Assembly (NCBI GenBank): GCA_964016885.1
Contig: OZ024741.1
Coordinates: forward strand, 312,666,001 to 312,730,000
Length of the DNA stretch: 64,000 nucleotides
Direction of reading: 5' to 3'
Origin: Eledone cirrhosa
Taxonomy: Eukaryota
The translations under genes and the position numbers were made by a program. The notes under the pieces were generated by a model. The model ran no database searches, had not been told where the DNA came from, and worked only from the letters and a program-made list of their open reading frames with translations. This document shows, piece after piece, positions 1,031 to 57,420 of the stretch; position 1 is the first letter of the stretch; every line of letters begins with the position of its first letter.

Positions 1031-1032
<2 letters not shown>

Positions 1033-1770
1033 TACAATTTAAAAAAATATGATCAACACTAATGTGTTTTTGCAAAGTAACAATAATTTTTTAGCCAGAT
1101 AGAAATACCTTAATTCAAGTACATATAGTCCGCCTGTATCGATCTAGAGCATATTAAATCTATACTTACAGACGTAAAATGGCAACTGCCTGGTGCCTAG
1201 ACAAGTTTAAATTTCAAAATTCAAACCTCTTCAGCAGATCGGGCGGAACTTCAAAGCACAACCCTGTTTCACAAGGGATGGTAAACTAATGAAATAATTA
1301 ATTAATTACAGAACAACTATTTATAAAATAATTATTAGTGAAGTAATGAATTTTATGTGATTTTCAATAGCACCCAGAAATTATAGTTATTTCTCCTAAG
1401 ATAATAATCTTAAGACTGATCTGTCGCAAGCCTAATACATGTGCTTTTGCACACGACCTTCTCAGCATTCTGGCTCATATCCATGGCGCTAGAAATAACA
1501 GCCGTAAATATGGGATTATAAATTCAGCTCTACCTAAGGAGCAGATTTATTTCAATTCAGAAGTCAAATACAATTCTTAAGCTCTAAGAAAATATTTCTG
1601 AACATTACATTACAATTTAAAAAAATATGATCAACACTAATGTGTTTTTGCAAAATGACAATAATTTTTTAGCCAGATAGAAATACCTTAATTCAAGAAC
1701 ATATAGTCCGCCTGTATCGATCTAGAAAATATTAAATATTAAATCTATACTTACAGATCTAAAATGGCAA

Positions 1771-1773
<3 letters not shown>
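1031..1773 (-). repeat. Tandem non-coding repeat family A (578-bp unit, ~1.3 copies), bounded by (TA)n
   Basis: ATTACAATTTAAAAAAATATGATCAACAC at 1031 and 1609; colinear similarity to family B at 10774-12361. Confidence 0.85.
1192..1374 (-). ncRNA. Expanded type I hammerhead ribozyme with U3-A8 core (family A)
   Basis: Minus strand GGTGCTA-TTGAAAA-tCA...TGt-GAAA-C[long imperfect hairpin]G-TC-TAGGCACC; same layout as family B. Confidence 0.65.
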
Positions 1774-1878: not shown

Positions 1879-2209
1879 TTATATATATATATGTATATAT
1901 ATGTATATACATGTATATATATATATATGTATATATATGTAAATATATATATATATATACATATGTATATATATGTATATATATATATACATATGTATAT
2001 ATATGTATATATATATACATACATATGTAGATATATGTAAATATATATATATATATATACATATATGTATATATATATATATATATATATACATATATAT
2101 AAAAACAAATAACTCTATGCAAATTAGTCTGCCCACTACTAATTTTCATAGAAAAAGCATATAATGATATGTGCTTTTACGATTCTCTAGAGAGGCCGGA
2201 AGATAGGTA

Positions 2210-2254
2210 AATATTGCTGATGAGTTGTAACAACAACGAAACTAGTTCAATATT
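2210..2254 (+). ncRNA. Minimal type I hammerhead ribozyme
   Basis: AATATTG-CTGATGA-GTTGT-aaca-ACAAC-GAAA-CTAG-TT-CAATATT: 7-bp stem I, perfect core; lies in a ~370-bp island between (TA)n arrays. Confidence 0.9.
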
Positions 2255-2470
2255 CCTTGTCTGGCTTTCTGGAGAATAGAGGAAAGGTGTTTCCTCAAAA
2301 ACCAGTATGACTCTAAAAGCCGGTTTGTCTGTGTGTTTACATACAGAATAGCTGGCCACTCACAGTAAAGTGACCAGTGAAAAAACTTGGTACATCTACA
2401 TATGTATACGTGTGTGTATTCATATACATACTAGTATTTCAGTATACATATATGGATGTACATCTTTAAC

Positions 2471-2506: not shown

Positions 2507-5500
2507 ATCTAAGGCGGGTAAAATTGCCGAGATCCATGGACGAGTTCTGTCTGTCCCTCATTATCGCTGCCATATCCTGCATCTCCAAAATACCAGTGTC
2601 TGTCCTTAGGGCATCAACATATGTTAACCTTGGTCTTCCTCTTCTAGTGTGTCCATGTAGGGGCTCCCAAAGGAGGACTGAGTGCAATGTCAACTCTGGA
2701 TGTCGGTGAGCATGTCCAGCCAACCTCAGTCTCCTCTGTGTCACTTTTGAGCTGACTTTTGGGATGCTCCCATACAGCTCTGAGTTTTTCATCCTCAGTG
2801 TATACTGATTAATGTTCAGAGCCATCCTCAGCATTCTTGTGTAGCACCCATCCACCATCTGAGTGAGTCTCTTGGTCAGTGTCCAAGTCTAAGACCCACA
2901 CAGCAGCACAGACTCCACTACAGCAATGAAGAGGCGGATTTTCAGGTCTTCACGAAGGTCCGACTCCCACACCGATCTCAAGCTGTGGCACGCCGCCCCG
3001 GCTTTGCTCTTCCTCTCAACCACATCATCTTCCGTATTCCCAATCTTTGCTCCCAAATACAGGAAGTCCTCAACCAATTCCAGCGGCTTCCCGCCTACAT
3101 TAGTGATCCCCTCTGGCTTCTCAACATTCTCTACCAGATATTTTGTTTTAGTCTCATTCATTCTCAGCCCCACACTCATCGACACAGTCTCAACCTCCCG
3201 CATGAAATCCTCTGCCTCCTTCACTGTATTTGTCACCAAAACTATGTCGTCAGCAAATTCAGCATCCGATACCTTTTTCGCCCCAACTCTCCTGCTCTGA
3301 GCCGGTGCTACAGTAAAGCCAGAGTCCTGGTGTTTCTCCAGTGCAAGGCGCATACAATAGTCCACTACGATGATAAAAAGGTAGGGAGTCAATGTATCTC
3401 GCTGGAGCACTCCAGCCTGTATCTCAAAGAACTCTGTCATCCCATCAGGTGTAATGACTTGGGCTTTGGTGTTGGTGTAGAGCAGTGATATCAGGTCCAC
3501 TATCCTCTTGGGGATTCCATAAGCCTGTAAGATCTTCATCAGGCAGTAACGATCCACAGAATCAAAGGCCTTCCTAAAGTCAATGAAAACCATGACCGCA
3601 GGTAGGCACTTTGCTCTAGCTCCCTGTAATATCCTCCTTAGCATCAGGATGTGACTGGTGGTTGATCTTACCTCTCTGAAGCCGTTCTGGTTGTCCCTGA
3701 GCTTCTTCTCCATCTCAGGCTGGATCCTGTTAAGAATCATCCTGTTGAGGGTATTTTCCACAAGTGACGTCAGTGAGATCCCCCGGTAGTTGTTGGTGTT
3801 AGAGAGATCTCCCTTCTTTGGCACTGGGACGATGTTACTGATCCTCCACTGATTCGGGGCAACTCCTTTCTCCAGTGCCCCGTTACAGAACCCCAGGATG
3901 ATATCATCAAAATCACACCTCTTCATCACCTCTGATGCCACTCCATCTTCTCCATGAGCCTTGCCCTCCTTGATCTTCTTCTTGGCTCTCTGAAGCTCCT
4001 CTCTGGTGAAGGGCTCTGTCTCAACATCCAGTTCCTCAAACAGCCGCCTGATCTCCCCAGTGCTCTGGGCTGTGGAGGGTGGCTCTCCTAGTAGGGTCCT
4101 AAAATGGTCTAGCCATTTCCTCTTCCTATCCTCGGGCCCCGTTCCCTGGATCTGACTCGAACACCTTTTCTTCCTCCCTGTGATCTCGTTGATGATCTTC
4201 CAGCTCTCCTTACATCCAGATCTGTCAACCGCTCTCTCCACACTTCTGATCTTCTCTATCAGAGCCTCCTCTCTGACCTCAGTGTAAGCGGTACAGAGCT
4301 CTTCCCTCATCACCTCCACAGTCTCCATCCTCTCCTCCGTAGGATCAGCATAGAATTGGTCCCTGGCAGATTTCAGGTGTTCTCTGGCTGCACACACTTT
4401 TGGGTTTGCAGAGCTGACGTGCTTCTCTTTGTTCTTTTTCCTCGGCACCAGGGTTTCACTTGCTTTCGCCACTGCATTGATGAAGTGCCCGTACCTCCTC
4501 GTCACACTCTCCTCAGTCCATCCAATCTCTCTCTCCTCTGACTCTCCACACAGAGCACTAAACCTGTTTCTCACTTCCACTGTGAACCACTCGTGTAGCT
4601 TATCATCTTCCTTGAAAGCTCCCCAGTCATAGATTGTTCTCCGAGGCTGAGCCTTGCTCTTTCTTAAGCTCACGCGGACCTCACTCATAACAAGCCGGTG
4701 GTCACTACCCAGTGTACTGAAATAGCTGTATGGTTCCGTGTTCAGAACACTATTCCGCCACTTTTTCCTCACCAGAATGAAATCAATCTGGGACTTGGAC
4801 AGGTGCATATCTGAGATGTAGGTCCACATCTTCCCCAGATTCTTCCTAAATCTTAGGTTGGTCGCCATCAAGTTCGCCTCCAGCAGTGTGTCTCTCAGTA
4901 GTTTTCCATTTCGGTTGGTGTTGTTATGGAAGTACCAGCAAGGATCTTCACTGCCCTCCTTACTCAGATGTGCATTGAAGTCCCCCAAAACAAGCAGGAT
5001 ATTGTGTGCCTGAGTGGTGTTGACAGCTCTACACACCTCCTCATGGAACTCCTCGGCATTCACATCACTGTCCCCCTCGGTTGGACTATAGGCTGAGATG
5101 ACTGTCAGTCTTGGGTTTCCATTGAAGGTAACCCTCAACACTCGCGGGGAGATAGGCATTATTTCCCTCACCAACAGATTGGTTCTTGCACTGAACACAA
5201 AACCCACTCCTCCTACTGCAGCATTTGTTGTGTTCTTCACTGCCGATGTAGTGATGAGCTGGCTCTTCCTCCCGATCATCACACTCCTCACGGGCTCATC
5301 GTGTAGAATCCTGTGTTCTTGGATCGCAAGTATCTGTATACCACTCTCCTCGAACAGATGTCCCAACTCCTCTCTCTTCTCCAGCGTTCGAATAGTCCTC
5401 ACATTCAAAGTGCCCATTTTGATGGCTCTTCTGCCGAACAAAACTGCATTCTTTATATTTGTCTCAGAGACAGCTGATCCATCATCCACTGGCCCTCTCT

Positions 5501-5594
5501 GTGGCTCTAAGCCAGCAGAGTCATAACGACCAGGCTGCTCCTTGACAGTGTAATTAGGGGCTCTAACCCTAGTGCTGTTAGATCAACTCTCCAT
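2505..5594 (-). pseudogene. RTE ORF (APE endonuclease + reverse transcriptase) broken by two nonsense codons
   Basis: Motifs TLNVRT, IQEH, AYSPT, GDFNA, SDH, YRGISL, QNGFR, FIDFRKAFDSV, FADD; in-frame ATG at 5594 with TGA at codon 4; TAG at 2889-2891 in frame with ORF 2505-2858. Confidence 0.9.
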
Positions 5595-5800: not shown

Positions 5801-6078
5801 ATATATATGTATATATATATATATACATATATGTATATTTTTAGACATATATGTTTATATATATATTTCGTTTCTGAATTTGTTTAGCAAGATTCTTTTT
5901 CTGAAATCGTGTGTTGAAACCGATATTGTTATACTTTGTGATGGTCATGTTGCCAATAAGAAACACACGCACCAGTTGCTTTCACTTCAATTTATTATAA
6001 TAAATTTATAATAAATTTATAAATTTATAAATTTCTGGTTGGTTGGTTGGTTCCACAACCAGATAGTTGTTTATATAT

Positions 6079-6123
6079 AGTCATAGTTCTTTCGTCACAC
6101 ACTCTGTGACCTCTTCAGTGACT
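6079..6123 (-). ncRNA. Minimal HHR in PLE1 pseudo-LTR
   Basis: AGTCA-CTGAAGA-g-GTCACA-gagtg-TGTGAC-GAAA-GAAC-TA-TGACT. Confidence 0.88.
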
Positions 6124-6324
6124 GGGGATTCCTTTCTTTGTTTCTGTGCCTCTCCTTTGTTCTGTCCTACGCCATTTTGTTTCTGTGTGTGAGGTTGTGT
6201 GCTCAGTCTGTGCATGCGCCACATCCGGGTGTCTGTGTGTGTTTATGTTCATTTATTTATTTGTTTATTTACATGTTACTGGTTGGTTGTTTGTTCTATG
6301 TGTGTGTGTGTTTTCATTTTGTCC

Positions 6325-8965
6325 TTAATTGTAAGTTGTGATGTTGCTGTTCCACTCATATTTTCTATTTAATTTTGGTTGTAATTCTTTTATGTTTATA
6401 GCTTCTGTAATTTGTCTAAACATTGCGTCTTTTCTGTGTGTAGATTCTATTTTTATTTCTATGTTCTCTAATTTACCCTTGTGTTCTATTTTAGCATGTT
6501 GGTAGAGTACAGATGATTCTTTGTTATCTTGAAGGTCTCGCCAGTGTTCAATTATCCGTTCCCCTACACTACGGGCTGTCTCACCTATGTACACTATATT
6601 TTTGTCTCTACATTGTCCTTCAGTACATCTTATGCTATACACTACACTTCTAGTTTTACAGTTAATATGGGGGCTTATTTTACAGGTTATACATTTCTCA
6701 TCTATACATGAGGGTCTTTGAAAAGGGTATGTCTTGCTAATAAGTGTTTTTACGGAGGTACCTGGTCTTTCTACTATCTTAATATTGAGTTTATGTTTAT
6801 TTAGGGCCCTTCTAAATTTGTAAGCTAGTTCACCTCTAGGGGTTGTATCGATGAACATTACACTCTGGTATTTATTGCTAGCATACCATGAGTTTATTCT
6901 ATTAGCCTTGTTCCTAGTTCTTTCTATTCTATTCCAAAATTTGCTCCTATATAAGGGGCAGGTCCCATTTATGTCATTATTTACCATTTTTTCCCATTTG
7001 GTTCTGGCTCCTCTATACACTCTGATTTTATCTCTCTGATTGTATCCAGAGAACTGCATACGGTGGATGAAGTGTTGTATGTGTCTCTCTAGTTCTTCGG
7101 GGTTGCACATGCGGGACACATTTCTCATCACCCGTACCAAATCCGCAATCAGTATGTTGATTTTGGTATGGTCCGAAACGGCCGAGTTTCGGTGGATCAG
7201 ATGTTTGGAAGTCATGGGTTTGGCATAATGGGAATGGAGGATTTGTTTTTTGTTGTTAATGGTATCTAACCAGAGCTCTGTGTCTATTACAGGTAATCGA
7301 TGGTTGGGGTGTTTACTTGGGTAGTCTATAGTAACTCTAATGCTCTGGTGGATGGAGTTTGCTATTTGCTGGATGCTTTCCATTGTGTTTTTCTCTAGTT
7401 CCTGACTGTTCTCTAGTGGGGGTGTCTTAACTACGATGTTTATATCATCTACGTAGCGGGAGTACATTATCAGGGTTAAGGGGTCTTCTAATTGTTCTTT
7501 AAGTTTAAGTTTAAGTCTACTGTCCCACCATACCATGAATAAGTTAGCTATGTCGCTTGCAATGCTAACACCAATGGCTGCTCCTTCCTCTTGGGCATAT
7601 GTTTTTCCATTAAATTTGAACATATGTTCCTTAAGGGTTGGTTTTATGCTGGCCCCTACCGCATGTGCAATCATTTTCTTCAGTTCATCGTGGTTTTCGG
7701 GTGTCCGTATGGCTCTGGTCCATCCGTTCCATCTATCTGTGTTTGTTTTCTTGGCCATTGAGGTAATGGTAGTTGGTCTGCCTCTTGCTGGTCTTGTAGG
7801 GCACAGGTTGCTAAGGTCATTTGTGTCTAGGTAATTATTACTATAGGTAAGCCTAAGTAGGAGTCCCAGCTCACTGGTATGAATCCCACGGAACACAACC
7901 TTGCTCTCACTGATCATTTCTACGCATTTCTCCACAGCAAAATCCACGTCAATAGATGGATACAGGGACACAACATCCATACTGCCTATTATGCGGTTTG
8001 TTAGGTCCCCAGATCGGTTACTCACGCTGATTCTGCTGAGGAGGTCCTCCGTGCTGTCACATACATCTGAGGACATTTCAATGATGGGGCGTATAATCAG
8101 GGAGAGGAAGTAGAACAGTTTGTAGTTACTAGCAATGTTAGCTCCACAGACTGGCCGTGTTGATGGTCCCGCGACAGGGTCACAGCCCGTTTTATGGTCT
8201 TTTCGAAGCCCATACAACGCCGGCACGTCATTGTTCCAGGCCTGGAAGTTGTTGGCAGTCCTTTCGTTTGGCTGCATTATATTCGTCCACATCACCATAT
8301 GGGCATTGAGGGCTTTTTCTCTATCCTGATGCTCCTGTGGTGTTACCTCTCTTGTGTTAGTGATGTGGGGTTGCATTGCCTGGATGTAGTTTGGCAGGCT
8401 GTCAACCGACGTTCTGCCAGACTTGTCTGTTGGAAAGCATGCTATCTCTCCATTACGTGAGCGCTGCATGAGCTTACGCAAGCCATTTGCAGATTTTTCT
8501 CCCAGTTGCTGGGCCTCAATTCTATTATGCTTCTTGCGATATTGTTCTATAATATTTCTAAGTTCGGATCTAGCTATACTAAATTGTGCTTCTGTTTGTT
8601 CATCGACCTGCGACGGCAATTGCGTGCGTTTGTTAAATGGTAAAGTCGTGGCGTAGACTCGTCGCAGGTCGAATGATTTATCGGAGGGATTATAAAACGT
8701 AGAGTTCCAGGCTGCTGCTTTATGTGTACTAATGCTATTGTTATTGTTAGTTGTGTTGTTTCTATTTCTATTTCCACCAACAACCTCATGGTTGTTTCTA
8801 TGTCTCTCACAATTACTCCTGTCTCTTTCCACTGGCTCATTGTTGTTATCTACCCTATTTTGTGTGAGTGTGTGTTCGTCTTGGTTATTCTCTTTGTCCT
8901 TAGTCTCCCTTCTCTTTTTAATCCTATTACTTTCCCTTATTTCTGTGATTTCTGTGCTACTGTCA
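6325..8965 (-). CDS. Penelope-like reverse transcriptase + GIY-YIG endonuclease (5-prime truncated)
   Basis: TDKSG, LYGLRKDHK, RPV, MDVVSLYPSI, RYVDDI, CxxC, VVYSIRC...YIGETAR; frame stays open upstream of the tracked GTG (8832) to the inversion junction. Confidence 0.9.
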
Positions 8966-10009
8966 TGACAGTAGCAACATACTGATTGCGGATTTGGTAC
9001 GGGTGATGAGAAATGTGACCCGCATGTGCAACCCCGAAGAACTAGAGAGACACATACAACACTTCATCCACCGTATGCAGTTCTCTGGCTACAATCAGAG
9101 AGATAAAATCAGAGTGTATAGAGGAGCCAGAACCAAATGGGAAAAAATGGTAAATAATGACATAAATAGGACCTGCCCCTTGTAAAGGAGCAAATTTTGG
9201 AATAGAATAGAAAGAACTAGGAACAAGGCTAATAGAATAAACTCATGGTATGCTAGCAATAAATACCAGAGTGTAATGTTCATCGATACAACCCCTAGAG
9301 GTGAATTAGCTTACAAATTTAGAAGGGCCCTAAATAAACATAAACTCAATATTAAGATAGTAGAAAGACCAGGTACCTCCTTACAAACACTTATTAGCAA
9401 GACATACCCTTTTCAAAGACCCTCATGAATAAATAAGAAATGTATAACCTGTAAAATAAGCCCCCATATTAACTGTAAAACTAGAAATGTAGTGTATAGC
9501 AAAAGATGTACTGAAGGACAATGTAGAGACAAAAATATAGTGTACATAGGTGAGACAGCCCGTAGTGTAGGGGAACGGATAAATGAACACTGGCGAGACC
9601 TTCAAGATAACAAAGAATCATCTGTACTCTACCAACATGCTAAAATAGAACACAAGGGTAAATTAGAGAACATAGAAATAAAAATAGAATCTACACACAG
9701 AAAAGACGCAATGTTTAGACAAATTACAGAGGCAATAAACATAAAAGAATTAAAACCAAAATTAAATAGAAAATATGAGTGGAACAGCAACATCACAACT
9801 TACAATTAAGGACAGAATGAAAACACACACGCACATAGAACAAACAACCAACCAGTAACATGTAAATAAACAAATAAATAAATGAACATAAACACACACA
9901 GACTCCCGGATGTGGCGCATGCGCAGACTGAGCACACAACACACAAACAGAAATAAAATGGCGTAGGACAGAACAAAGGAGAGGCACAGAAACAAAGAAA
10001 GGAATCCCC

Positions 10010-10054
10010 AGTCACTGAAGAGGTCACAGAGTGTGTGACGAAAGAACTATGACT
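10010..10054 (+). ncRNA. Minimal HHR in the inverted PLE1 pseudo-LTR
   Basis: Same motif as 6079-6123 on the opposite strand. Confidence 0.88.
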
Positions 10055-10270
10055 ATATATAAACAACTATCTGGTTGTGGAACCAACCAACCAACCAGAA
10101 ATTTATAAATTTATAAATTTATTATAAATTTATTATAATAAATTGAAGTGAAAGCAACTGGTGCGTGTGTTTCTTATTGGCAACATGACCCTCCCAAAGT
10201 ATAACAATATATATATATATATACATATATGTATATATATACATATATATATATGTATATATATATATAC

Positions 10271-10357
<87 letters not shown>

Positions 10358-10383
10358 CATATATGTATAAATATATGTATATA

Positions 10384-10447
<64 letters not shown>

Positions 10448-10995
10448 TGTATATATATATATTTACATATATATACATATGGATATATATATATATATAC
10501 ATATATATACATATGTATATATATATATATATTTACATATATATACATATATATACATATATATACATATATATACATATATATATATAAATATATATAC
10601 ATATATATATAAATATACATATATATACATATATATATATATACATATGTATACATATATATATATATATACATATATATACATATATATATATATATAT
10701 ACATATATATATACATATACATATATACATATATATACATATATATACACACATATATATATATATATATATATTATATTATATTTTGAGAATAAACTCT
10801 CAGTCGTTTACAATAATTGAGCTCCAGGAAGGGGCTCTTCCGAGCAGTTACATTTAAAATATATGATAAACACGAAATGTGTTTAAATTGCAACAGACAA
10901 AGTTAGCTATTAATGAAATAAACTAATTAAAGTAAATACAATTTGTCTGTCTTGATATAAGTCAATAAAGACAAGCTTATATTGGCAACGGCAAT

Positions 10996-11173
10996 GATTT
11001 CTGGACATATTTAAATTTCAAAATTCAAATCTGGTTCTGTAGACGAATTTGAACCTCGAAACCCAAATAAGTTTCGCAACGGTGGAATGTGATTTGAAAA
11101 ATAAAGAGAATCGAAATGGAGTAGAAATAAAAGAGTGAAATATCCAGATCTTCTGTGCTTATCAACAGGAATC
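10996..11173 (-). ncRNA. Expanded type I HHR with U3-A8 core (family B, copy 1)
   Basis: Minus strand GATTCCTG-TTGATAA-GCA...TGC-GAAA-C[long hairpin]G-TC-CAGAAATC (one stem I mismatch). Confidence 0.75.
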
Positions 11174-11549
11174 CAGTAAAATTAGACTATCTCACATCAA
11201 AAATTTTGCAGGTCTGACTACACGTGTGCAGGCAGGCCAAAACTAGCTATCCGGCATTCACGGTGCTAGAAATAACAGCCGCTTATGCAGGATTAAGGAT
11301 CAGCTCATACAATAACGGAGCTATACATTATATTATATTTTGAGAATAATCTCTCAGTCGTTTACAATAATTAAGCTCCAGGAAGGGACTCTTCCGAGCA
11401 GTTACATTTAAAATATATGATAAACACGAAATGTGTTTATATTGCAACAGACAAAGTTAGCTATTAATGAAATAAACTAATTAAAGTAAATACAATTTGT
11501 CTGTCTCGATATAAGTCAATAAAGACAAGCTTATATCGGCAACGGCCAT

Positions 11550-11726
11550 GATTCCTGGACATATTTAAATTTCAAAATTCAAACCTGTTCTGTAGACGAA
11601 TTTGAACATCGAAACCCAAATAAGTTTCGCAACGGTGGAATGTGAATTGAAAAATAAAGAGAATCGAAATGGAGTAGAAATAAAAGAGTGAAATATCCAA
11701 ATCTTCTGTGTTTATCAACAGGAATC
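11550..11726 (-). ncRNA. Expanded type I HHR with U3-A8 core (family B, copy 2)
   Basis: Perfect 8-bp stem I GATTCCTG/CAGGAATC, TTGATAA core, GAAA, long stem III, GUC site; first stem II pair mutated. Confidence 0.75.
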
Positions 11727-12357
11727 CAGTAAAATTAGACTATCTCACATCAAAAATTTTGCAGGTCTTACTACACGTGTGCAGGCAGGCCAAAACTAGC
11801 TATCCGGCATTCACGGTGCTAGAAATAACAGCCGCTTATGCAGGATTAAGGATCAGCTCATAGAATAAAGGAGCTATACATTATATTATATTTTGAGAAT
11901 AAACTCTCAGTCGTTTAGAATAATTAAGCTCCAGGAAGGGGCTCTTCCGAGCAGTTACATTTAAAATATATGATAAACACGAAATGTGTTTATATTGCAA
12001 CAGACAAAGTTAGCTATTAATAAAATAAACTAATTAAAGTAAATACAATTTGTCTGTCTCGATATAAGTCAATAAAAACAAGCTTATATTCAACTCCATT
12101 TCGATTCTCTTTATTTTTCAATTCACATTCCACCGTTGCGAAACTTATTTGGGTTTCGAGGTTCAAATTCGTCTACAGAACAGGTTTGAATTTTGAAATT
12201 TAAATATGTCCAGGAATCATGGCCGTTGCCAATATAAGCTTGTCTTTATTTACTTATATCGAGACAGACAAATTGTATTTACTTTAATTAGTTTATTTCA
12301 TTAATAGCTAACTTTGTCTGTTGCAATATAAACACATTTCGTGTTTATCATATATTT

Positions 12358-12428
<71 letters not shown>

Positions 12429-12440
12429 TTCATATATGTA

Positions 12441-14013
<1,573 letters not shown>

Positions 14014-14245: not shown

Positions 14246-14251
<6 letters not shown>

Positions 14252-15618
14252 GGAAAAAATGAAACGATATTTCATTTCCCACTCTTAGTACGGCTGTTAC
14301 TTAAATATAAGTATGTACACGTACATACATATATGTATACCGACGTACAGTAGTATGTATATATATATATACATACATGCACACATATATATATGCACGT
14401 ATGGATTCACCGAACATTTATTATAATGCTCGGTGTGTTTGTAAACAAACATCCCGTATTAAGCCGTAGTGTCTAGCAACCACCGTTGCTCGTTTGTTCA
14501 ACACTGACAAAGGAACGCTGTACTAGTTTCAAGCTTGTTAGCTATCGTCAGCAACGTATACCTTCCTGCCAGATTGTTGAACGTATATACTTACCTTATG
14601 CATATTGACGGCCGAGTAGCCCAATATGCATATCGAGTGGGTTAATCGGCCGGGTGCACCGAAAACGATAAACGGAAAAAATGAAACGATATTTCATTTC
14701 CCACTCTTAGTACGGCTGTTACTTAAATATAAGTATGTACACGTACATACATATATGTATACCGACGTACAGTAGTATGTATATATATATATACATACAT
14801 GCACACATATATATATGCACGTATGGATTCACCGAACATTTATTATAATGCTCGGTGTGTTTGTAAACAAACATCCCGTATTAAGCCGTAGTGTCTAGCA
14901 ACCACCGTTGCTCGTTTGTTCAACACTGACAAAGGAACGCTGTACTAGTTTCAAGCTTGTTAGCTATCGTCAGCAACGTATACCTTCCTGCCAGATTGTT
15001 GAACGTATATACTTACCTTATGCATATTGACGGCCGAGTAGCCCAATATGCATATCGAGTGGGTTAATCGGCCGGGTGCACCGAAAACGATAAACGGAAA
15101 AAATGAAACGATATTTCATTTCCCACTCTTAGTACGGCTGTTACTTAAATATAAGTATGTACACGTACATACATATATGTATACCGACGTACAGTAGTAT
15201 GTATATATATATATACATACATGCACACATATATATATGCACGTATGGATTCACCGAACATTTATTATAATGCTCGGTGTGTTTGTAAACAAACATCCCG
15301 TATTAAGCCGTAGTGTCTAGCAACCACCGTTGCTCGTTTGTTCAACACTGACAAAGGAACGCTGTACTAGTTTCAAGCTTGTTAGCTATCGTCAGCAACG
15401 TATACCTTCCTGCCAGATTGTTGAACGTATATACTTACCTTATGCATATTGACGGCCGAGTAGCCCAATATGCATATCGAGTGGGTTAATCGGCCGGGTG
15501 CACCGAAAACGATAAACGGAAAAAATGAAACGATATAGCTAACAAGCTTGAAACTAGTACAGCGTTCCTTTGTCAGTGTTGAACAAACGAGCAACGGTGG
15601 TTGCTAGACACTACGGCT
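14246..15618 (-). repeat. Family C array: three 422-bp units plus short inverted segment (15535-15618)
   Basis: Unit starts at 14246, 14668, 15090 and 15512; the units read as identical. Confidence 0.95.
14515..14557 (-). ncRNA. Minimal type I HHR, one per 422-bp unit (also 14937-14979 and 15359-15401)
   Basis: ACGTTG-CTGACGA-t-AGCT-aaca-AGCT-t-GAAA-CTAG-TA-CAGCGT, GUA site. Confidence 0.9.
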
Positions 15619-21239: not shown

Positions 21240-22643
21240 TTTTATTTACTTATTTATACTTCTCTCAGGTCAGTGTTGTTTGTTTAGGGTGTTGTTGTTA
21301 TTCCATTCATTCTTTCTGTTTAGTCTTGACCTTCTAATTCCTATTTCACTGGCCTCTCTGATTTGCCTATCTGCTGGGTCATTTCTATGTTTAGATATTA
21401 TTCTAATTTTGTATGTTGTCTATGTCACCGTCATGTTGTTGTCTAGCATGTTTGTATAGTACTGACCCATTTTTTCGTCCTTTTAGTTCCCCCCAGTGTT
21501 GGTCTATCCTTTCACCTATGCTACGAGCTGTCTCACCTATGTATGTTGTTGTCATGTTTCTGCAAGTACCCTCTGTAATCTTATGCTATAGATTACGTTT
21601 CTAGTTTTACAGTTTATCCGGGGGTTTACCTTACATTTGATACACTTCCTATTGGTACAGTGGTTTTTCTTAAAAGGGTAGGTTTTGCTGATCAGGGATT
21701 TTATGGTGGTTCCTGGCTTTTCTTCCACCTTAATTTTTAAGTGGGTCTTTCTCAGGGCCTTTCTACACTGGTTAGCTAATTTCCCTCCGGGGGTAGCGTC
21801 CACAAACATGACACTCTGGTATCAAACATGAGGTGGCTTTCCCTATCTTATGTCTAGCCCTATCTAAACTATTCCATGATTTGCTCCTGTATAATGGGCA
21901 AATTCCTTTCATGTTCAGTTCTATGAGGGTCTTATACTTCTCCATGGCTCCTACGTATACTCTGACTCTGTCTCTTTGGTTGTAGCCAGAGAACTGCATG
22001 CGGTTGATGAAGTGTTGGATGTGTCTTTCCATTTCTGTTGGGTCGCACATGCGGGACACATTCTTCATCACTCGTACCAAATCTGCGATCAGAATATTAA
22101 ACTTAGCACTAATGGACATTGCTGAGTTTTTGAGTATCAGGTATTTGGAGGCCATGGGTTTAGCATAGTGTGAGTGGAGAATTTGGGCTCTCTCGTCTAT
22201 AGTGTTAATCCAGAGTTCTGTGTCTAATACAGGTAGTCTATTGTTAGGGTGTTTGGAAGGGAAGTCGATATTTACAGTTATACTCTGGTGTATGGAATTA
22301 GCTATCTGCTGTATGCTTTCCATCGTGCTACGTTGTAAATCAAATTTGTTGGTGCTTTCTAGACATATAATACAACAGGATGATACGATAACACCACTGA
22401 CGATGTTGCAGATGTGCAACGAAAGATTTATGATAAACTATATATATGTGTTTGTGTCTATATTGTATCTGTATTATTTTTGACCGTCGGTCAGTCAATG
22501 GTAACTTTGAGGACCGAGTAAGGTAGATTACCGATATAAAAGGCACAGAAGCGAGAAGCGAAAACCAACCAAACAGTGAGTGTGTTCTGTTATTAATTCT
22601 GACAATATTACACAAATATGACCCTCCCCAAGTATAACAATAT
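20720..22643 (-). mobile_element. Penelope-like element PLE2: truncated and frameshifted RT thumb + GIY-YIG with inverted pseudo-LTRs; HHRs at 20967-21008 (-) and 22393-22434 (+)
   Basis: ORFs 21772-22419 and 21552-21809 align with the PLE1 protein; arms 20761-21041 and 22360-22643; CTGACGA-t-GTTGCA-gatg-TGCAAC-GAAA-GATT-TA. Confidence 0.9.
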
Positions 22644-50512: not shown

Positions 50513-51039
50513 GCGTGTGTGAGTGTGTGTGTGTGTGTGTATTTATTTAAGTTTATATTTCATACAGTTTACTACGAAATTCCGGTTTCCTCATGTAAGT
50601 TAACATTTCCGTTCCTTGCTGATCTTCCATATGTATTGACGATTTGATTTAAGTCTAGCAATAACACGCCACAGAATACAAATTAAATAGGATTTTTAAA
50701 AGAAAATGCGTCTCGTCCTCCACCATAGTGTCCACATAAATCACAACATACAGTCCGTTTCCTCCAGAATATAGATTCCGCTAGAATTCACTCGGTGGAT
50801 ATCCTTATCATCTACAGGTCTTATCTACGTAAATTCATGACATTTAGGGAAATCATATATGTGTAAATGTCACATAACAGAGACTGTAATAAAACATTTC
50901 TTTGGTTTTCAAGAATATTATAGTTTTACCAAACTAAGTATTGAGCTATTCTCTTTGTATTTTCCTTTCTCTTATCATCTGTATTTACCTCTGTCTTTTT
51001 TACTGTCTTTACACTCTCTTTTCCTTTGTCTCTTCCTCT

Positions 51040-52330
51040 GTCTTCACTGTTGTCTTTTCCCCTATTTTTCTTTTGTCCTTTCCTCTGACTTTTCCTCTGT
51101 CTTTTCCTCCGTCTTTTCATTTGCCTTTTCCCCTGTCTTTTCCGCTGTCTTTTTCACTGTCTTTTGCTCTGTCTTTAGCTCTGTCTTTTCCTTTTTCTTT
51201 TCGTCCGTCTTTCCTTCCCCTGTCTTTTCCGCTGTCTTTTCCCCAGTCTAATCCAGTGCTTTTTCCTTTGTTTTTTCTGCTGTCTTTTCCGCTGTCTTTT
51301 GCCCAGTCTAATCCGGTGCTTTTTCCTTTGTCTAATCTGTTGTATTTTCGGCTGTCTTTTCCCCAGTCTAATCCGGGGCTTTTTCCTTTATCTTTTCTGC
51401 TGTCTTTTCCTTTGTCTTTTCCCCAGTCAAATACGATGCCTTTTCCTCTGTCTTTTCTGCCCCTGTCTTTTCCGCTGTCTTTTCCGCTGTCTAATCCGGT
51501 GCTTTTTCCTTTGTCTTTTCTCCAGTCTAATCCGGTGCTTTTTCCTTTGTCTTTTCTGCTGTCTTTTCCGGTGTCTTTTCCCCAGTCTAATCCGGGGCTT
51601 TTTCTTTTGTCTTTTCTGCTGTCTTTTCCGCTGTCTTTTCCCCAGTCTAATCCGGTGCTTTTTCCTTTGTCTTTTCTGCTGTCTTTTCCGCTGTCTTTTC
51701 GCCAGTCTAATCCGGTGCTTTTTCCTTTGTCTTTTCTGCCGTCTTTTCCGCTGTCTTTTCCCCAGTCTAATCTGGTGCTTTTTCCTTTGTCTGTTCTGTT
51801 GTATTTTCCGCTGTCTTTTCCCCAGTCTAATCCGGTGCTTTTTCCTTTGTCTTTTCTGCTGTCTTTTCCGCTGTCTTTTCCCAAGTCTAATCCGGTGCTT
51901 TTTCCTTTGTCTTTTCTGCTGTCTTTTCCGCTGTCTTTTCCCAAGTCTAATCCGGTGCTTTTTCCGCTGTCTGTTCTGCTGTCTTTTCCGCTGTCTTTTC
52001 CGCTGTCTAATCCGGTGCTTTTTTCTTTGTCTGTTCTGCTGTCTTTTCCGATGTCTTTTCCCCAGTCTAATCCGGTGCCTTTTCCTTTGTCTGTTCTGCT
52101 ATCTTTTCCGCTGTCTTTTCCCCAGTCTAATCCGGTGCTTTTTCCTTTCTCTGTTCTGCTGTCTTTTCCAATGTCTTTTCCCCAGTCTAATCCGATGCTT
52201 TTTTCTTTGTCTGTTCTGCTGTCTTTTCCACTGTCTTTTACCCAGTCTAATCCGGTGCTTTTTCCTTTGTCTGTTCTGCTGTCTTTTCCGCTGTCTTTTC
52301 CGTTGTCTTTTCCGCTGTCTTTTTCTGTGT
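51040..52330. repeat. Minisatellite with 60-bp period built from 12-bp CTGTCTTTTCCG-like subunits
   Basis: Successive 60-base lines align from ~51540 to 52300. Confidence 0.95.
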
Positions 52331-54996
52331 TTTTTCCACTGTCAATTCTTCTGTCTTTATTTCCCCGAATTTTCTTCCTGAAAGTGGATGTAAATATTTC
52401 ATTACAATTTAGTATGTATTCTAATTACAACGTATCATGTTTATTCTAACGCCTACATATGTTAATACAATCATGGTACCTGGTTTCTGTGAGAGTAGCT
52501 ATATTTTGAACAACTGGGTGGTAAAAGTGAGAACTAGAATATAATGTTGAGAGCTATGTTTTTCAGGTTAAGACAAAAAAAACATGTTACAGTTAAATTA
52601 CACATTAATTATTATTTTTATTACAGCAAATGGAAATTTAAAAATTATTAAATAATATTGTATTTAACAAAATAAAAATAATTGACGAGGGAATGACGAC
52701 TTGGTCACAATCTGATATTCAGTCATGTCTATAACACATTATTAATTTCTCATCAAAGACAACTTCTGGTATCACTAATAATTTCCAGAGAGATATTCTC
52801 ATCGAACAATCTAAATCCTCCATTCTTATATGATTGAAAAATTAACCCAGGAAAGATCATTATTTTCACCAATATAAAATATGTTCTTGTGTCATTTATT
52901 TTGACTCACTTATGTTCTGATACTAACGTGATTTTCACCTATATTGATTAGTCGATAGAATCAGTAACAGTCTTGTATTGCGAATCGGTTCGGTTTCTCA
53001 ATGCATATGTCATGACAGTTTATATTATCGTGGCCATGTAAGTCATATTTCTTATAGGTAATATGCCTTAGGTACATATATCAGTGCTGATGCAAATTGG
53101 TAATTGTATAAAACATTGTTAATCTTATATAATTAGATTTCTGAATAATATATTTGATGTTACTTGGCTGAGACTTCATCAGATTGAGTGTTATCACGTA
53201 TTTTTTATTTTATTTTAACTGGTTTAGGGAAATATATAGTTATTGAGATAATATCTATAACATGTCTTTTGAATAAATAAAAGTATTTGAGCGTCTTGTA
53301 TCAGTCAAAACCTAACAGATGCAAATGTCTCAGAACTGGCTACATCTAATTGGTTCTGCGAATTCATTTGTTTGAAAGTTATTTGAATGGTTAACATATT
53401 TATTAAAAGTGGGGATGAGAAACTTTCTTTATGGTTGCTGGACATGCTAAAGAAAGCAGTCAAAAACACAATGTTGTTCGCAAGACACTTAAATGTCAGT
53501 ATGGTGATGACTGAAATGTTTTTGATGATAGGTGTCTTCAGTTATGACTGACCTGAGCCTAAACAACAACTGAAGTGCGATAAAATTAGTAAACCCCAAC
53601 TCCAGTAAATTGTACAGTTATTAAAAAGGAAATTATCTCCAGATGGGTTTGAGCATGGACTAATGTAGTAGTGAAAAGCTATAATAGAATATAACATTTG
53701 GTTTCTTCATAATTAAGATATTATTTAATTTCCGAAAACCTTTGGTTAGCAGAGGCGGTAGCGCGCTGTTCTTAATGACATGTTGTAATGACATGTATCC
53801 TTTCACATACACAGTTTATATCTCATTCAGTAGAAACTTGACATCCACTCTTTCGTCCCCGACAAACTTTCTATGAGTTGTGATGTTGATATATTTACAT
53901 CTAGCTCTCCCTAAAATTTGCGTCCTTAAATTGTGTTCTTCAACTTATTGGTTTATCCTGCGGTAGTTTTAAACAATTACATCCCTGTTCGAATTGTTTG
54001 GCCTTCTGCTAAATCGCTGATTTTATTTATTATTCAATCAAATATGCTATCTGTCTAAACCAAGTATAAATCTAACCACGTTGTCGTCTTACAGCTTACC
54101 CCCCCTCTCTCTCTCTCTCTCTCTCAATCTCTCTCTCTCTATCTCTCTCTCTCTCTCTCGCTATCTCTCTCTCTCTCTCTCTCCGTATATATAGTACTGT
54201 ACCTTGTGTTCATTGTATTCACAACTAAATCAGGTGACTCGTAGAGATATTGTCACTGTATTAGACTTCTACATATTAGACTCAGTTATAAACCGTTTCA
54301 ATAAGTATGCATTTGACTCATGTTATCTTGTACTTGTAATGGTATAAAAAAAACTAAATATTGCTTGGGCTATAGAAAATGTAATTAACAAATCAAAATA
54401 TTTCTTGTCAAAACAATAAAATACTAATATGAAATATATAGGAAATTCACAATATTGAGAACTAGATGTACTACTTTACAGTTTCCAACATTATGCCTAA
54501 TGTATCTGTATTCAAATAACATCAAGGCAAAGCTTGTTTTAATGTATTAAACACAATTACTATGTTTCTGTCAAAAAGAAAATTTTAAATGTCCTGGTCA
54601 AATTATGAGGCAATAATTAGTTCAACGACTGCAATTAGTACATTTAATATTATACGTGGTTATTAATATTCACCGAACAACCTAACTGGGAAAATAAGTT
54701 TTAATATAGAAAACTCATCGCTGAAACATACGGAGGTCAATGACACAATATACAAATATAAAAAAACAAAACATTGTTATTGACTCTAAATCTAAACATC
54801 AGAAAGATTGAAATTCACCAATTACTTCTAACAATTGTATTGATACAAGAAATCACATACCTGTAAATGACTGGTGCAAGCACACCTGAAATTAACAGGA
54901 AAAGTAGGCACAACGCAATCATCACGATATAACCGGGATATAGTCCGTGTGTTTCTTCTGTTCAAAGGTAAAATATTATTTATATATATATATACA

Positions 54997-55504: not shown

Positions 55505-57420
55505 AATATATATATACATGCACAAAAGGGACAGCCACGGGCACCAAAGTAGCCCCAACATATGCAACACACGTCATGGGTCATCTAGATGTAACGTTAT
55601 ATTCCCATCTGCAGGAAACATTCAGTCACGACTTTGCCACCTACATTAATAACAAATGGATATGTTACCTAATCGAATGCTTCATCTTCTGTAATAGAAG
55701 TCAAGGAGACCTACTAAGATTCCATTCCCTCATGAACAGGCTCCATGAAGGAAAACAATTTATCATGGATTGAAATAAAAAGGAACGACCGTTTTTGGAT
55801 ATCATTATCATTATCGAAAAAGAAAATTTTAAAATGTCCTGGTCAAATTATGAGGAAATAATTATTCAAACGACTGCAATTAGTACATTTAATATTATAC
55901 GTGGTCATTAATATTCACCGAACAACCTAACTGGGAAAACAAGTTTTAATATAGAAAACTCATCGCAGAAACATACGGAGGTCAATGACACAATATACAA
56001 ATATAAAAAAAAAAACAATGTTATTGACTCTAAATCTAAACATCAGAAAGATTGAAATTCACCAATTACTTCTAACAATTGTATTGATACAAGAAATCAC
56101 ATACCTGTAAATGACTGGTGCAAGCACACCTGAAATTAACAGGAAAAGTGGGCACAACGCAATCATCACTATATAAGCGGGATGTGTGGATTGGCAGTAT
56201 CGGTAGAGAGTCGGACACCATGCTTTGAAGCATAGAGTTACGTCCCTTTATGATCTGAGTTCAAATCCCGCCGAGGTTAACTTTGCCTTTCATCCTTACG
56301 GGGTCGATAAAATAAAGTGCCAGTAATGTACTGGGTAATTGCTGGCCTTGTGCCTAAAATAGAAACAATTATCATTATCGGTAGAGGGTCGGACACCATG
56401 CTTTCCAGCATAGTTACGTCCCTTTACGGTCTGAGTTCAAATCCCGTCCGTCCAGGTTAACTTTCCCTTTCATCCTTGCGGGGTCGATAAAATAAAGTAC
56501 CAGTAATGTACTGGATAATTGCTGGCCTTGTGCCAAATGTAGAAACAATTATCATTAAAGAAGGGGTAAATATAAAAACAGACCTATTTTACAAACCAGC
56601 AGACACACACCAGCACTTGAATTTCCGATCAGCACACCCCTCACATACCAAAAGGAACATACCCTTTAACAAAACGCATTTGCACAAAGTAACGCAACCC
56701 ACACTACAGGAAAAAAGATTATATGAACTAAAAGAGTTCCTTAATAGACTATCCGGTGATCTTCATCAATACGGCTATCTCCAAGCCCAAGAATATCCCA
56801 GTGACAAAACAGAAAAACAAACCAACAAAATAAAAGGGGAAAAGCAGTTATCCCTTTTGTCATCACTTATAATTCAAAGAACTTGAACATTGTGAAAGCC
56901 GCTATATAATATCTCCCGATTCTCAAGCAGTCCTCCAAAATAAAAGCACTCATAAAACTCACAAATACTATGTAGTGGACGCCAAGCAGCTAACTTTTTA
57001 AAAAATTCTTATTAAGACGAAATTTACGTCTGACAATGAAACAATGCAAGTTAAGAAATGCGGGAACTCTCTATACGGAACTTGCTAATACATTGAAGAG
57101 GATGGACAAATCTCCTTTAGAAACAATGACATTTTCAAATTTAAGGCAAGCGTGAATTCCAAAACAAAAACCTTAATTTAGTGTGTGAGCTGCCCAAAAT
57201 ATGAAGAATACTACATTTGAGAACGTGTCTACATGATAGGGTTCAGGCCACTAAAAAACAAATTGGAGACTCCTCTGTCAGAAACACCACATGCAGTGAA
57301 CACTTCGCATCATGCGGGAAGAGAAAATTCACAATTTTCCCCTTCTTCAAGATATGGTCGGACAAAGAACATTCCCCAAAATATAAAGAATTTTTCATTA
57401 CAAATAAAGAAAAAAAAATT
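55505..57420 (+). pseudogene. Degraded Penelope-like RT + GIY-YIG (PLE4), interrupted at ~55815-56553
   Basis: [51 protein letters not shown]...YI, SEHF. Confidence 0.85.
56186..56550 (+). mobile_element. Two tandem SINE copies (56186-56370 and 56377-56550)
   Basis: Same family; each ends in ATTATCATTA. Confidence 0.9.

Follow-up and report, generated by a model that had tools for sequence, protein, structure and literature searches.

A dispersed noncoding superfamily of Eledone cirrhosa pairs an enlarged hammerhead-shaped motif with the insertion anatomy of Penelope-like elements

What kind of element gives rise to a 553-bp repeat whose units each fold, on one strand, into a hammerhead-shaped RNA? 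The question is raised by a 64,000-nt stretch of the Eledone cirrhosa genome (here called the window), which holds such a repeat (family B) and a diverged relative (family A) (Table 1). A preliminary description had labeled the family B repeat a satellite. That label fails, given that the repeat is dispersed, has fixed 3' ends, and forms short arrays: it belongs to a dispersed, noncoding superfamily.

The family B insertion consists of a 2.39-unit array (unit starts at 10768, 11322, and 11875, i.e., spacings of 554 and 553 nt; 97% identity) and an inverted arm that directly abuts it, the whole lying between two (TA)n tracts. The long arm (10768 to 12089) has its 3' end at the long start site and is 5' truncated at 12089. 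Its tail is bounded by the long site near 11322 to 11327 and the short site near 11403. The inverted arm contains GAAA (12140 to 12143), stem III (to 12207), GUC (12208 to 12210), and the 3' strand of stem I, and is without the 5' half of the hammerhead core. With a G+C content of ~34% and a longest stop-to-stop frame of 59 codons in 10768 to 12089, the units are noncoding, and no LTR-like layout was seen in family A or B insertions. The 15-nt block common to the two families lies outside the ribozyme (three matches versus 0.02 expected) and may be a promoter or a site for protein binding; a 93-bp tandem repeat at another locus (L090) contains a similar word.

Table 1. Features of the family A and family B insertions in the window
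Feature	Position	Strand	Remark
(TA)n microsatellite, left insertion target	10207..10784	.	
Family B long arm, 2.39 head-to-tail units	10768..12089	RNA sense on minus	
Inverted 5'-truncated family B arm, ending at the short start site	12084..12365	+	
(TA)n microsatellite, right insertion target	12350..12526	.	
81-nt tail between two fixed 3' ends	11322..11402	minus	equivalent stretch in every unit
15-nt block identical in families A and B	11265..11279	+	also 11818-11832, 1488-1502
Unit 1 motif	10996..11173	minus	predicted cut between 11004/11003
Unit 2 motif	11550..11726	minus	predicted cut between 11558/11557
Predicted pseudoknot	11700..11736	minus	5' flank 11736-11727 with loop II start 11708-11700
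Small conserved hairpin just 3' of stem I	11538..11547	minus	97% of cells paired
Family A insertion, 1.27 units between (TA)n tracts	1032..1773	minus	
Family A motif	1192..1374	minus	core UUGAAAA; predicted cut between 1200/1199

Read on the minus strand, a full family B unit presents stem I, UUGAUAA, a 3-nt strand of stem II, a 77-nt loop, GAAA, 64 nt, GUC, and the partner of stem I. In unit 2, the eight positions of stem I (GATTCCTG, 11726 to 11719, with CAGGAATC, 11557 to 11550) are followed by the core UUGAUAA (11718 to 11712), a stem II formed by 11711 to 11709 with 11631 to 11629 (A10.1-C11.1 in this unit) around the 77-nt loop II, GAAA (11628 to 11625), the 64 nt of stem III, and GUC (11560 to 11558). 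Family A has the same layout, with 67 to 69% identity to family B over the alignable parts; its insertion in the window (1032 to 1773) has its 3' end at the short start site and its 5' end 11 nt 3' of the predicted cut. No copy in the window is flawless, with unit 1, unit 2, and the family A copy each damaged: unit 1 has one stem I mismatch (CAGAAATC) and one extra nucleotide in loop III, and the family A copy lacks 1 nt of stem I and opens stem II with U-U. Other family A copies have a perfect 8-bp stem I (GGTGCCTA/TAGGCACC). The motif bounds (10996 to 11173, 11550 to 11726, and 1192 to 1374) exclude the 5' flank needed for the predicted pseudoknot. Fold z-scores of the three full window copies were -2.8, -0.9, and -2.1 on the minus strand and -1.1, 0.0, and +0.05 on the plus strand; the whole 553-nt monomer gave -4.06.

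The features read in the preliminary description are confirmed, and its interpretation of them is partly supported. It had read a type I hammerhead on the minus strand of each unit, a layout found in the window units and conserved across the subfamilies; it had given family A the same topology with a distinct stem I, as is supported by stem I covariation among sister families; and its proposal of a retrozyme-like element with an enlarged hammerhead and a U3-A8 core is likewise supported. It had also expected the usual searches to miss the motif. The Rfam hammerhead families (clan CL00010) gave no match at E values of up to 10 in 10770 to 12365, and a plain stem descriptor missed both copies tried; counts of animal hammerheads may therefore be too low. 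Its ~24-bp stem III is as G-U rich as described but longer (27 pair positions, counting A15.1-U16.1), and the monomer size that it had considered unusual is not, since animal retrozyme families span 51 to 972 bp (10.64898/2026.07.22.740005).

DNA searches returned 1862 (family B) and 1046 (family A) first-look candidates, of which 40 each were scored. Two motif patterns yielded 641 and 891 exact matches genome-wide (reversed controls, 0 and 0); because each pattern holds part of the motif constant, both counts are lower bounds. Parsing of 180 loci gave 203 distinct motif copies, which hand-set rules divided among 11 subfamilies; sister families more distant than these may have been overlooked by the pattern and DNA searches. 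Loop II ranges from 25 to 87 nt across the superfamily, the stretch from GAAA to GUC is 63 to 65 nt in 106 of 106 copies (the parse allowed ~41 to 71), and unit lengths from tandem spacing are ~512 to 601 nt. Arms are mostly 0.5 to 1.5 units long (at most ~5) and spread over many contigs, and the arrays consist purely of head-to-tail units, uninterrupted by any reading frame. The pattern of stem III and stem I had no match in metagenome or viral contigs. No RNA collection was listed as containing the unit, and three contig sets of unrecorded kind contained 0.29 to 0.45 of its words, which speaks neither for nor against expression.

Two side observations concern copy structure. Widely spaced copies reflect a local duplication at L109, unrelated insertions at L197 and L198, and a likely 3' transduction at L196. 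A 38-nt internal deletion, which shortens stem III via its internal repeat, recurs in several subfamilies (L106, L107, L144, L161, L170, and L178); at L170 it is present in both arms and was therefore already in the template RNA.

Judged from sequence comparison, the RNA structure is under selection. In a covariation set of 22 copies at <95.5% identity, picked from 106, 92.9% of 1077 cells pair and 9 pairs changed on both sides. The covariation score was reached by 0 of 500 shuffles (the shuffle ignores relatedness), and slid controls reached at most 53%; the count of both-side-changed pairs alone was reached by 42 of 500 shuffles. Covariation had been proposed beforehand as a check on stems I and III. 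It is present in stem I, where both partners have changed at 3 of 8 pairs, one of which occurs as three pair types, while the changes in stem III are mostly one-sided: 101 of 106 copies contain 727 G-U versus 6 A-C cells there. Abundant G-U with hardly any A-C in stem III fits an RNA of the minus strand. Unaided, RNAalifold recovered stems I and III and the 3' hairpin and did not recover stem II, which is conserved, 2 to 3 bp long, and has a thermodynamic pairing probability of 0 to 0.29; several lineages open it with U-U, A-C, or C-C. The layout is thus that of type I, with three stems round the core and stem I open, stems I and III being supported by covariation and folding. We are nearly certain that the motif is hammerhead derived.

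We tried A-to-I editing as a source of the G-U pairs. Shared A>G changes affect 9 of 20 A positions in family B stem III (20 of 135 elsewhere) and 1 of 18 in family A stem III (4 of 164 elsewhere; no enrichment). Editing was not adopted as the source; selection explains this pattern equally well.

A pseudoknot involving loop II is also predicted. In all subfamilies the 5' flank and the start of loop II can form 6 to 10 bp, with a few one-sided or compensating changes, and the own partner beats shuffled partners in 192 of 203 related copies; pairings between families are no less stable than those within a family. Because only one of seven pairs changed on both sides, the pseudoknot stays a prediction, of a kind common in hammerheads (PMC3088659).

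Within the core, G5, A6, A9, G12 to A15.1, C15.2, G16.2, and U16.1 are invariant in 11 of 11 subfamilies, and positions 3, 4, 7, 8, 10.1, and 11.1 vary; outside the core, 49 of 150 columns downstream and 22 of 170 upstream are invariant. GAAA is present in 187 and GUC in 192 of the 203 copies. The 891 matches to the second pattern comprise 123 CC+G8, 0 CC+A8, 6 CU+G8, 4 CU+A8, 63 UU+G8, and 17 UC+A8 cores, the remaining 678 being UU+A8 plus an uncounted UC+G8 class. C3 pairs with G8 in 129 of 133 genome matches and U3 mostly with A8 (U3-G8 in at least 63 of 891), and C4 occurs in at least 140 of 891, in three lineages; the window copies keep U4. In a tree of 32 copies, C3-G8 appears in two separate clades, both with C4, and is nested once inside a U3-G8 grade. 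The textbook CUGANGA was found in only 6 of 891 cores, and these cases may be CpG decay of CCGA.

The U3-A8 core that the preliminary description had reported is present; as a departure from the hammerheads of Penelope-like elements (PLEs) it does not stand, being a known natural variant that occurs in PLE hammerheads also (PMC3088659, PMC4209133). U-U at 10.1-11.1 is likewise natural (PMC3088659, PMC4209133), as is U4C, which is far less active in vitro (PMC3088659). In a published mutational scan, the C-G/G-C swap was the only change in the motif that retained activity (PMC9901934). We found no report, in the literature searched, of a CCGANGA core that characterizes a whole lineage. The U4C lineages and the 63-copy U3-G8 lineage would be surprising in an efficient hammerhead. 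The rarity of CUGANGA may reflect selection for a slow ribozyme; another reading is that a core CUG is avoided, as it would compete with the CUG/CAG pairing of the pseudoknot. With CUGANGA avoided repeatedly, the lineages form a natural series in which the tuning of ribozyme speed can be examined.

Insertion anatomy was compared, after removal of duplicate loci, in 71 family B and 34 family A insertions, in which arm lengths are biased upward because loci were chosen for full-length or motif matches. Arms end on their 3' side at two fixed sites: in family B, 57 of 104 at unit positions 1 to 3 and 42 of 104 at 78 to 93 (99 of 104 in total); in family A, 32 of 50 at 1 to 16 and 16 of 50 at 514 to 531 (48 of 50 in total). 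The 5' ends are scattered in both families. Both orientations occur in 32 of 71 family B and 16 of 34 family A insertions, and, of the two-arm inverted insertions, 29 of 31 in B and 13 of 16 in A have one arm per start site. In family B, (TA)n adjoins 46 of 54 long ends and 39 of 42 short ends (six of the misses are unfiltered internal junctions); in family A it adjoins 27 of 31 and 17 of 17 ends. Each insertion stems from one template, units being alike within insertions (median divergence, 1.1% for B and 1.9% for A) and diverged between them (5.5% and 3.9%, respectively). Shared variant sites did not separate circular from multimeric templates, differences within insertions being mostly end effects.

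PLE insertions have been described as partial tandems that have inverted 5' copies, carry a one-sided tail, and target (TA)n (PMC8557442), and two internal reverse transcriptase (RT) start sites with both-strand extension have been reported in vitro for a PLE (PMC11167929). The autonomous PLE in the window (5867 to 10210) shows the same insertion layout, with a 56-nt tail. The insertion anatomy of the units is that of PLEs, a feature that the preliminary description did not contain, nor did it contain the CCGANGA lineages or the predicted pseudoknot.

Some 5' ends coincide with the predicted cut. Four local family A arms (L033, L042, L054, and L059) start exactly at the predicted 3' product, that of L033 being ambiguous through stem I microhomology; 0 of 104 local family B 5' ends lie within 5 nt of the site. 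A genome-wide end-pattern test with an internal control covered 39 A-type matches and 100 of 107 B-type matches. Twenty candidates were fetched, comprising 7 true 5' ends at 0 to +2, 1 ambiguous end, and 12 intact copies with point changes. Pooled with L042, the count is eight ends between 0 and +2 of the predicted cut, against zero at -2 or -1 (chance, ~0.02 if ends fall evenly over the five positions; families were pooled after the fact); two of the eight carry TA microhomology of up to 2 nt. Local samples contributed two further clean family A ends at 0. These ends are suggestive of cleavage in vivo, and part of the template may have been cut. By eye, ~32 of the 100 listed B-type matches end at +7 to +9, i.e., at the foot of stem I, many with microhomology. 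As ends pile up there, the template was folded; RT stalling at stems I and III explains this main pile-up as well as cleavage does. We think it quite probable that the motif still cleaves. Of 313 segments, 137 run at least 115 nt past the predicted cut; most arms pass the site, and circles or uncut multimers would therefore be the main template.

The loci examined contain at least five PLE families: the window element, PX, PY, a YRDD-type family (copies 99% identical), and the element behind a compact hammerhead at 2199 to 2270. The window element, an ordinary PLE and our comparator, has a 912-codon frame (6325 to 9063, minus strand) with an RT, a CX4CxxC linker, and a GIY-YIG-like endonuclease; it also has an inverted 5' arm, its tail measures 56 nt, and each pseudo-LTR carries a minimal canonical hammerhead (~10010 to 10055, plus strand; mirror near 6085 to 6125, minus strand). 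PX is represented in the window by a fragment at 21772 to 22437, ~70% identical to the 6325 to 9063 element. PY (L181 to L195) is very young (1185 candidates; 40 scored copies ~100% identical), and its 3' region includes long mixed microsatellites. At L196 (1043 to 8295; G000:C3:161916000-161925900), a young PLE with a YRDD RT motif forms a two-arm insertion, both arms of which continue across (TA)n and into hammerhead-element copies in antisense orientation. This antisense junction looks like a 3' transduction; an assembly fold-back is also possible. The 3' region of the L196 element has two ends 105 nt apart and a core-like CUGAAGA...GAAAC...GUC with an ~80-nt loop and no clear stem I. The compact hammerhead at 2199 to 2270 (plus strand) is of type I, with a CUGAUGA core and a palindromic stem III (Rfam HH9, 37.7 bits, under the 52-bit cut-off), and is probably a truncated PLE end between (TA)n tracts. 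The window further contains an 897-codon frame with endonuclease and RT domains (2889 to 5582, minus strand), which by its motifs we take to be an RTE-like LINE; a 422-bp repeat in 3.1 identical copies (14246 to 15536); a 60-bp minisatellite with open frames on both strands (50956 to 52358); and a 180-bp tandem of a SINE-like element (56198 to 56557).

In four PLE families compared directly, no significant sequence common to the units was detected; the enlarged motif was absent from those families, PY and the YRDD type included, in the loci searched; and no 3' similarity of the units to an autonomous family was found among the five PLE families sampled. At 31 of 180 loci a PLE fragment lies near the units; each is an insertion in its own right, has an unrelated 3' end, and is in most cases separated from the units by (TA)n. 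Candidate chimeric unit-PLE insertions at L097, L105, L107, L094, and L010 are explicable as separate insertions into the same (TA)n tract, as are those at L021, L076, L078, L150, and L164. Because no sampled PLE shares sequence with the units, the driver can be proposed only as a class. That a PLE protein mobilizes the units is highly probable. Penelope elements are listed as abundant in a survey of cephalopod repeats in which unknown repeats were set aside (PMC8967140).

Our best explanation, which we regard as likely, is that the units are a non-LTR retrozyme superfamily moved in trans by a (TA)n-targeting Penelope-like RT-endonuclease. It builds on the anatomy, targets, covariation, core counts, and 5'-end positions reported above, and it proposes transcription, cleavage, circles, and a driver protein. 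The tandem array would be transcribed on its minus strand, and the short stem II would be propped by the predicted pairing of the 5' flank with loop II. Thanks to its long stem III, the hammerhead could act as a monomer, with a cut after GUC; slow cutting is expected, because each lineage has at least one activity-lowering core change. The template would consist of monomers, probably circularized, or of uncut multimers. Once the PLE protein had nicked a (TA)n tract on both strands, each 3'-OH would prime RT at one of two fixed internal sites 65 to 85 nt apart, and joining of the two cDNAs at variable 5' ends would leave a partial tandem and an inverted copy with a tail at one end. A more specific version, which we offer tentatively and consider somewhat less likely to be right than wrong, is that the hammerhead is selected to be weak, flipping between UUGANAA and CCGANGA and avoiding CUGANGA, so that enough of the template, uncut or circular, survives for the PLE enzyme; the insertions would then record twin priming and run-off at the cut. 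If true, this version would supply direct genomic evidence of PLE-driven retrozyme mobility and of cutting in vivo.

The units could instead be a nonautonomous PLE whose fold no longer cleaves and is kept as a binding or folding scaffold, uncut multimers being the sole template. Lineages with U4C, U3-G8, or mismatched 10.1-11.1 are tolerated, stem II is unstable in silico, most arms pass the site (the 137 of 313 segments at least 115 nt beyond it), and a PLE inserted in vitro without need for hammerhead cleavage (PMC11167929), all of which such a scaffold would accommodate. A mere scaffold would not, however, lead one to expect core bases and a GUC that are invariant while their neighbors vary, a covarying 3-8 pair, or 5' ends that stop at the predicted cut, and a circle would more readily regenerate arrays of up to 5 units; we consider it unlikely. 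Several of the observations that favor it also count against our own explanation, as do the single both-side change in the pseudoknot, the small size of the 5'-end step at the predicted cut, the lack of sequence shared with the sampled PLE families, and the result that eight of nine predicted Xenopus retrozymes showed no cleavage in vitro (10.64898/2026.07.22.740005).

That the units are the pseudo-LTRs of an unsampled autonomous PLE, with arrays as truncation products, seems to us more doubtful still. Their insertion anatomy is identical to that of PLEs, 24 of 57 Xenopus retrozyme families match known transposable elements, nearly all PLEs, at pseudo-LTR ends (10.64898/2026.07.22.740005), and ~150 insertions were inspected out of hundreds; yet the arrays are pure head-to-tail series of up to 5 copies with no frame between them, and the PLE fragments nearby (31 of 180 loci) are separate, with unrelated 3' ends. 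A satellite or a DNA transposon (MITE or Helitron type) that resembles a hammerhead by chance would account for tandem units and for AT-rich, self-complementary sequence. Such an origin is very improbable in the face of copies on many contigs in arrays of mostly 0.5 to 1.5 units, fixed 3' ends with scattered 5' ends, G-U rather than A-C substitutions that fit one RNA strand, and core covariation.

For the proposed retrozyme superfamily moved by a PLE protein, the literature offers partial precedents. A link between retrozymes and PLEs has already been proposed (PMC7229834; 10.64898/2026.07.22.740005), the enzyme that moves animal retrozymes was stated to be open (PMC7229834), and a 2026 preprint argues for PLEs from co-occurrence and pseudo-LTR homology (10.64898/2026.07.22.740005). 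The present units add a retrozyme-like element that, without detectable pseudo-LTR homology, carries a PLE-specific insertion signature. Their two start sites are known to within a few nucleotides and several young PLE families are candidate drivers, so that an in vitro test is well defined. In the open-access literature searched, we found neither this family, nor the CCGANGA/UUGANAA toggle, nor retrozymes with PLE tails; a repeat-database entry for the family may already exist.

Metazoan non-LTR retrozymes are, like these units, noncoding and low in G+C content, occur in tandem with one type I hammerhead per unit, and are found beside PLEs (PMC7229834; 10.64898/2026.07.22.740005); the present unit size falls within their 51- to 972-bp range (10.64898/2026.07.22.740005), and U-U at the base of helix II occurs in the axolotl retrozyme hammerhead HHR_Amex2 also (PMC7229834; 10.64898/2026.07.22.740005). 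Their hammerheads are compact, with a helix III of 1 to 2 bp, whereas the units' motif covers ~120 to 185 nt, with a 27-position stem III, a 25- to 87-nt loop II, and a UUGANAA or CCGANGA core. The units also differ in their PLE-specific two-site, two-arm anatomy and in having no detectable homology to local pseudo-LTRs; metazoan retrozymes are defined partly by monomeric linear and circular RNA, whereas the units are known here from DNA.

With PLEs and with MRC1, a nonautonomous PLE that forms head-to-tail copies (PMC8557442), the units share the partial tandem, the inverted 5'-truncated copy, the tail at one end, the (TA)n target, and two RT starts (PMC8557442, PMC11167929). They differ in having no reading frame, in a tail of 65 to 85 nt versus 30 to 40 nt (PMC8557442, PMC11167929), in an enlarged rather than minimal hammerhead, and in the absence of detected 3' similarity to an autonomous family. 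The U3-A8 core is found in nature in the minimal PLE hammerheads of Cercyon, and a large helix III is found in fungal and protist PLE motifs, where it gives a monomer-active ribozyme (PMC4209133); in contrast to the PLE hammerheads described there, the units join U3-A8 and a long helix III in an animal, with a large loop II and repeated U4C. Natural pseudoknotted hammerheads, human C10orf118 among them, are reported to display U3-A8, a stem II of 2 bp or starting with U-U, and a Watson-Crick pseudoknot joining stems I and II (PMC3088659), whereas the pseudoknot of the units is predicted only. Retrozymes, nonautonomous PLEs, U3-A8 cores, long stems III, and pseudoknots are therefore known singly, and we did not find them combined in the literature searched: the units would function like a metazoan non-LTR retrozyme and insert like a PLE, both kinds of element being known.
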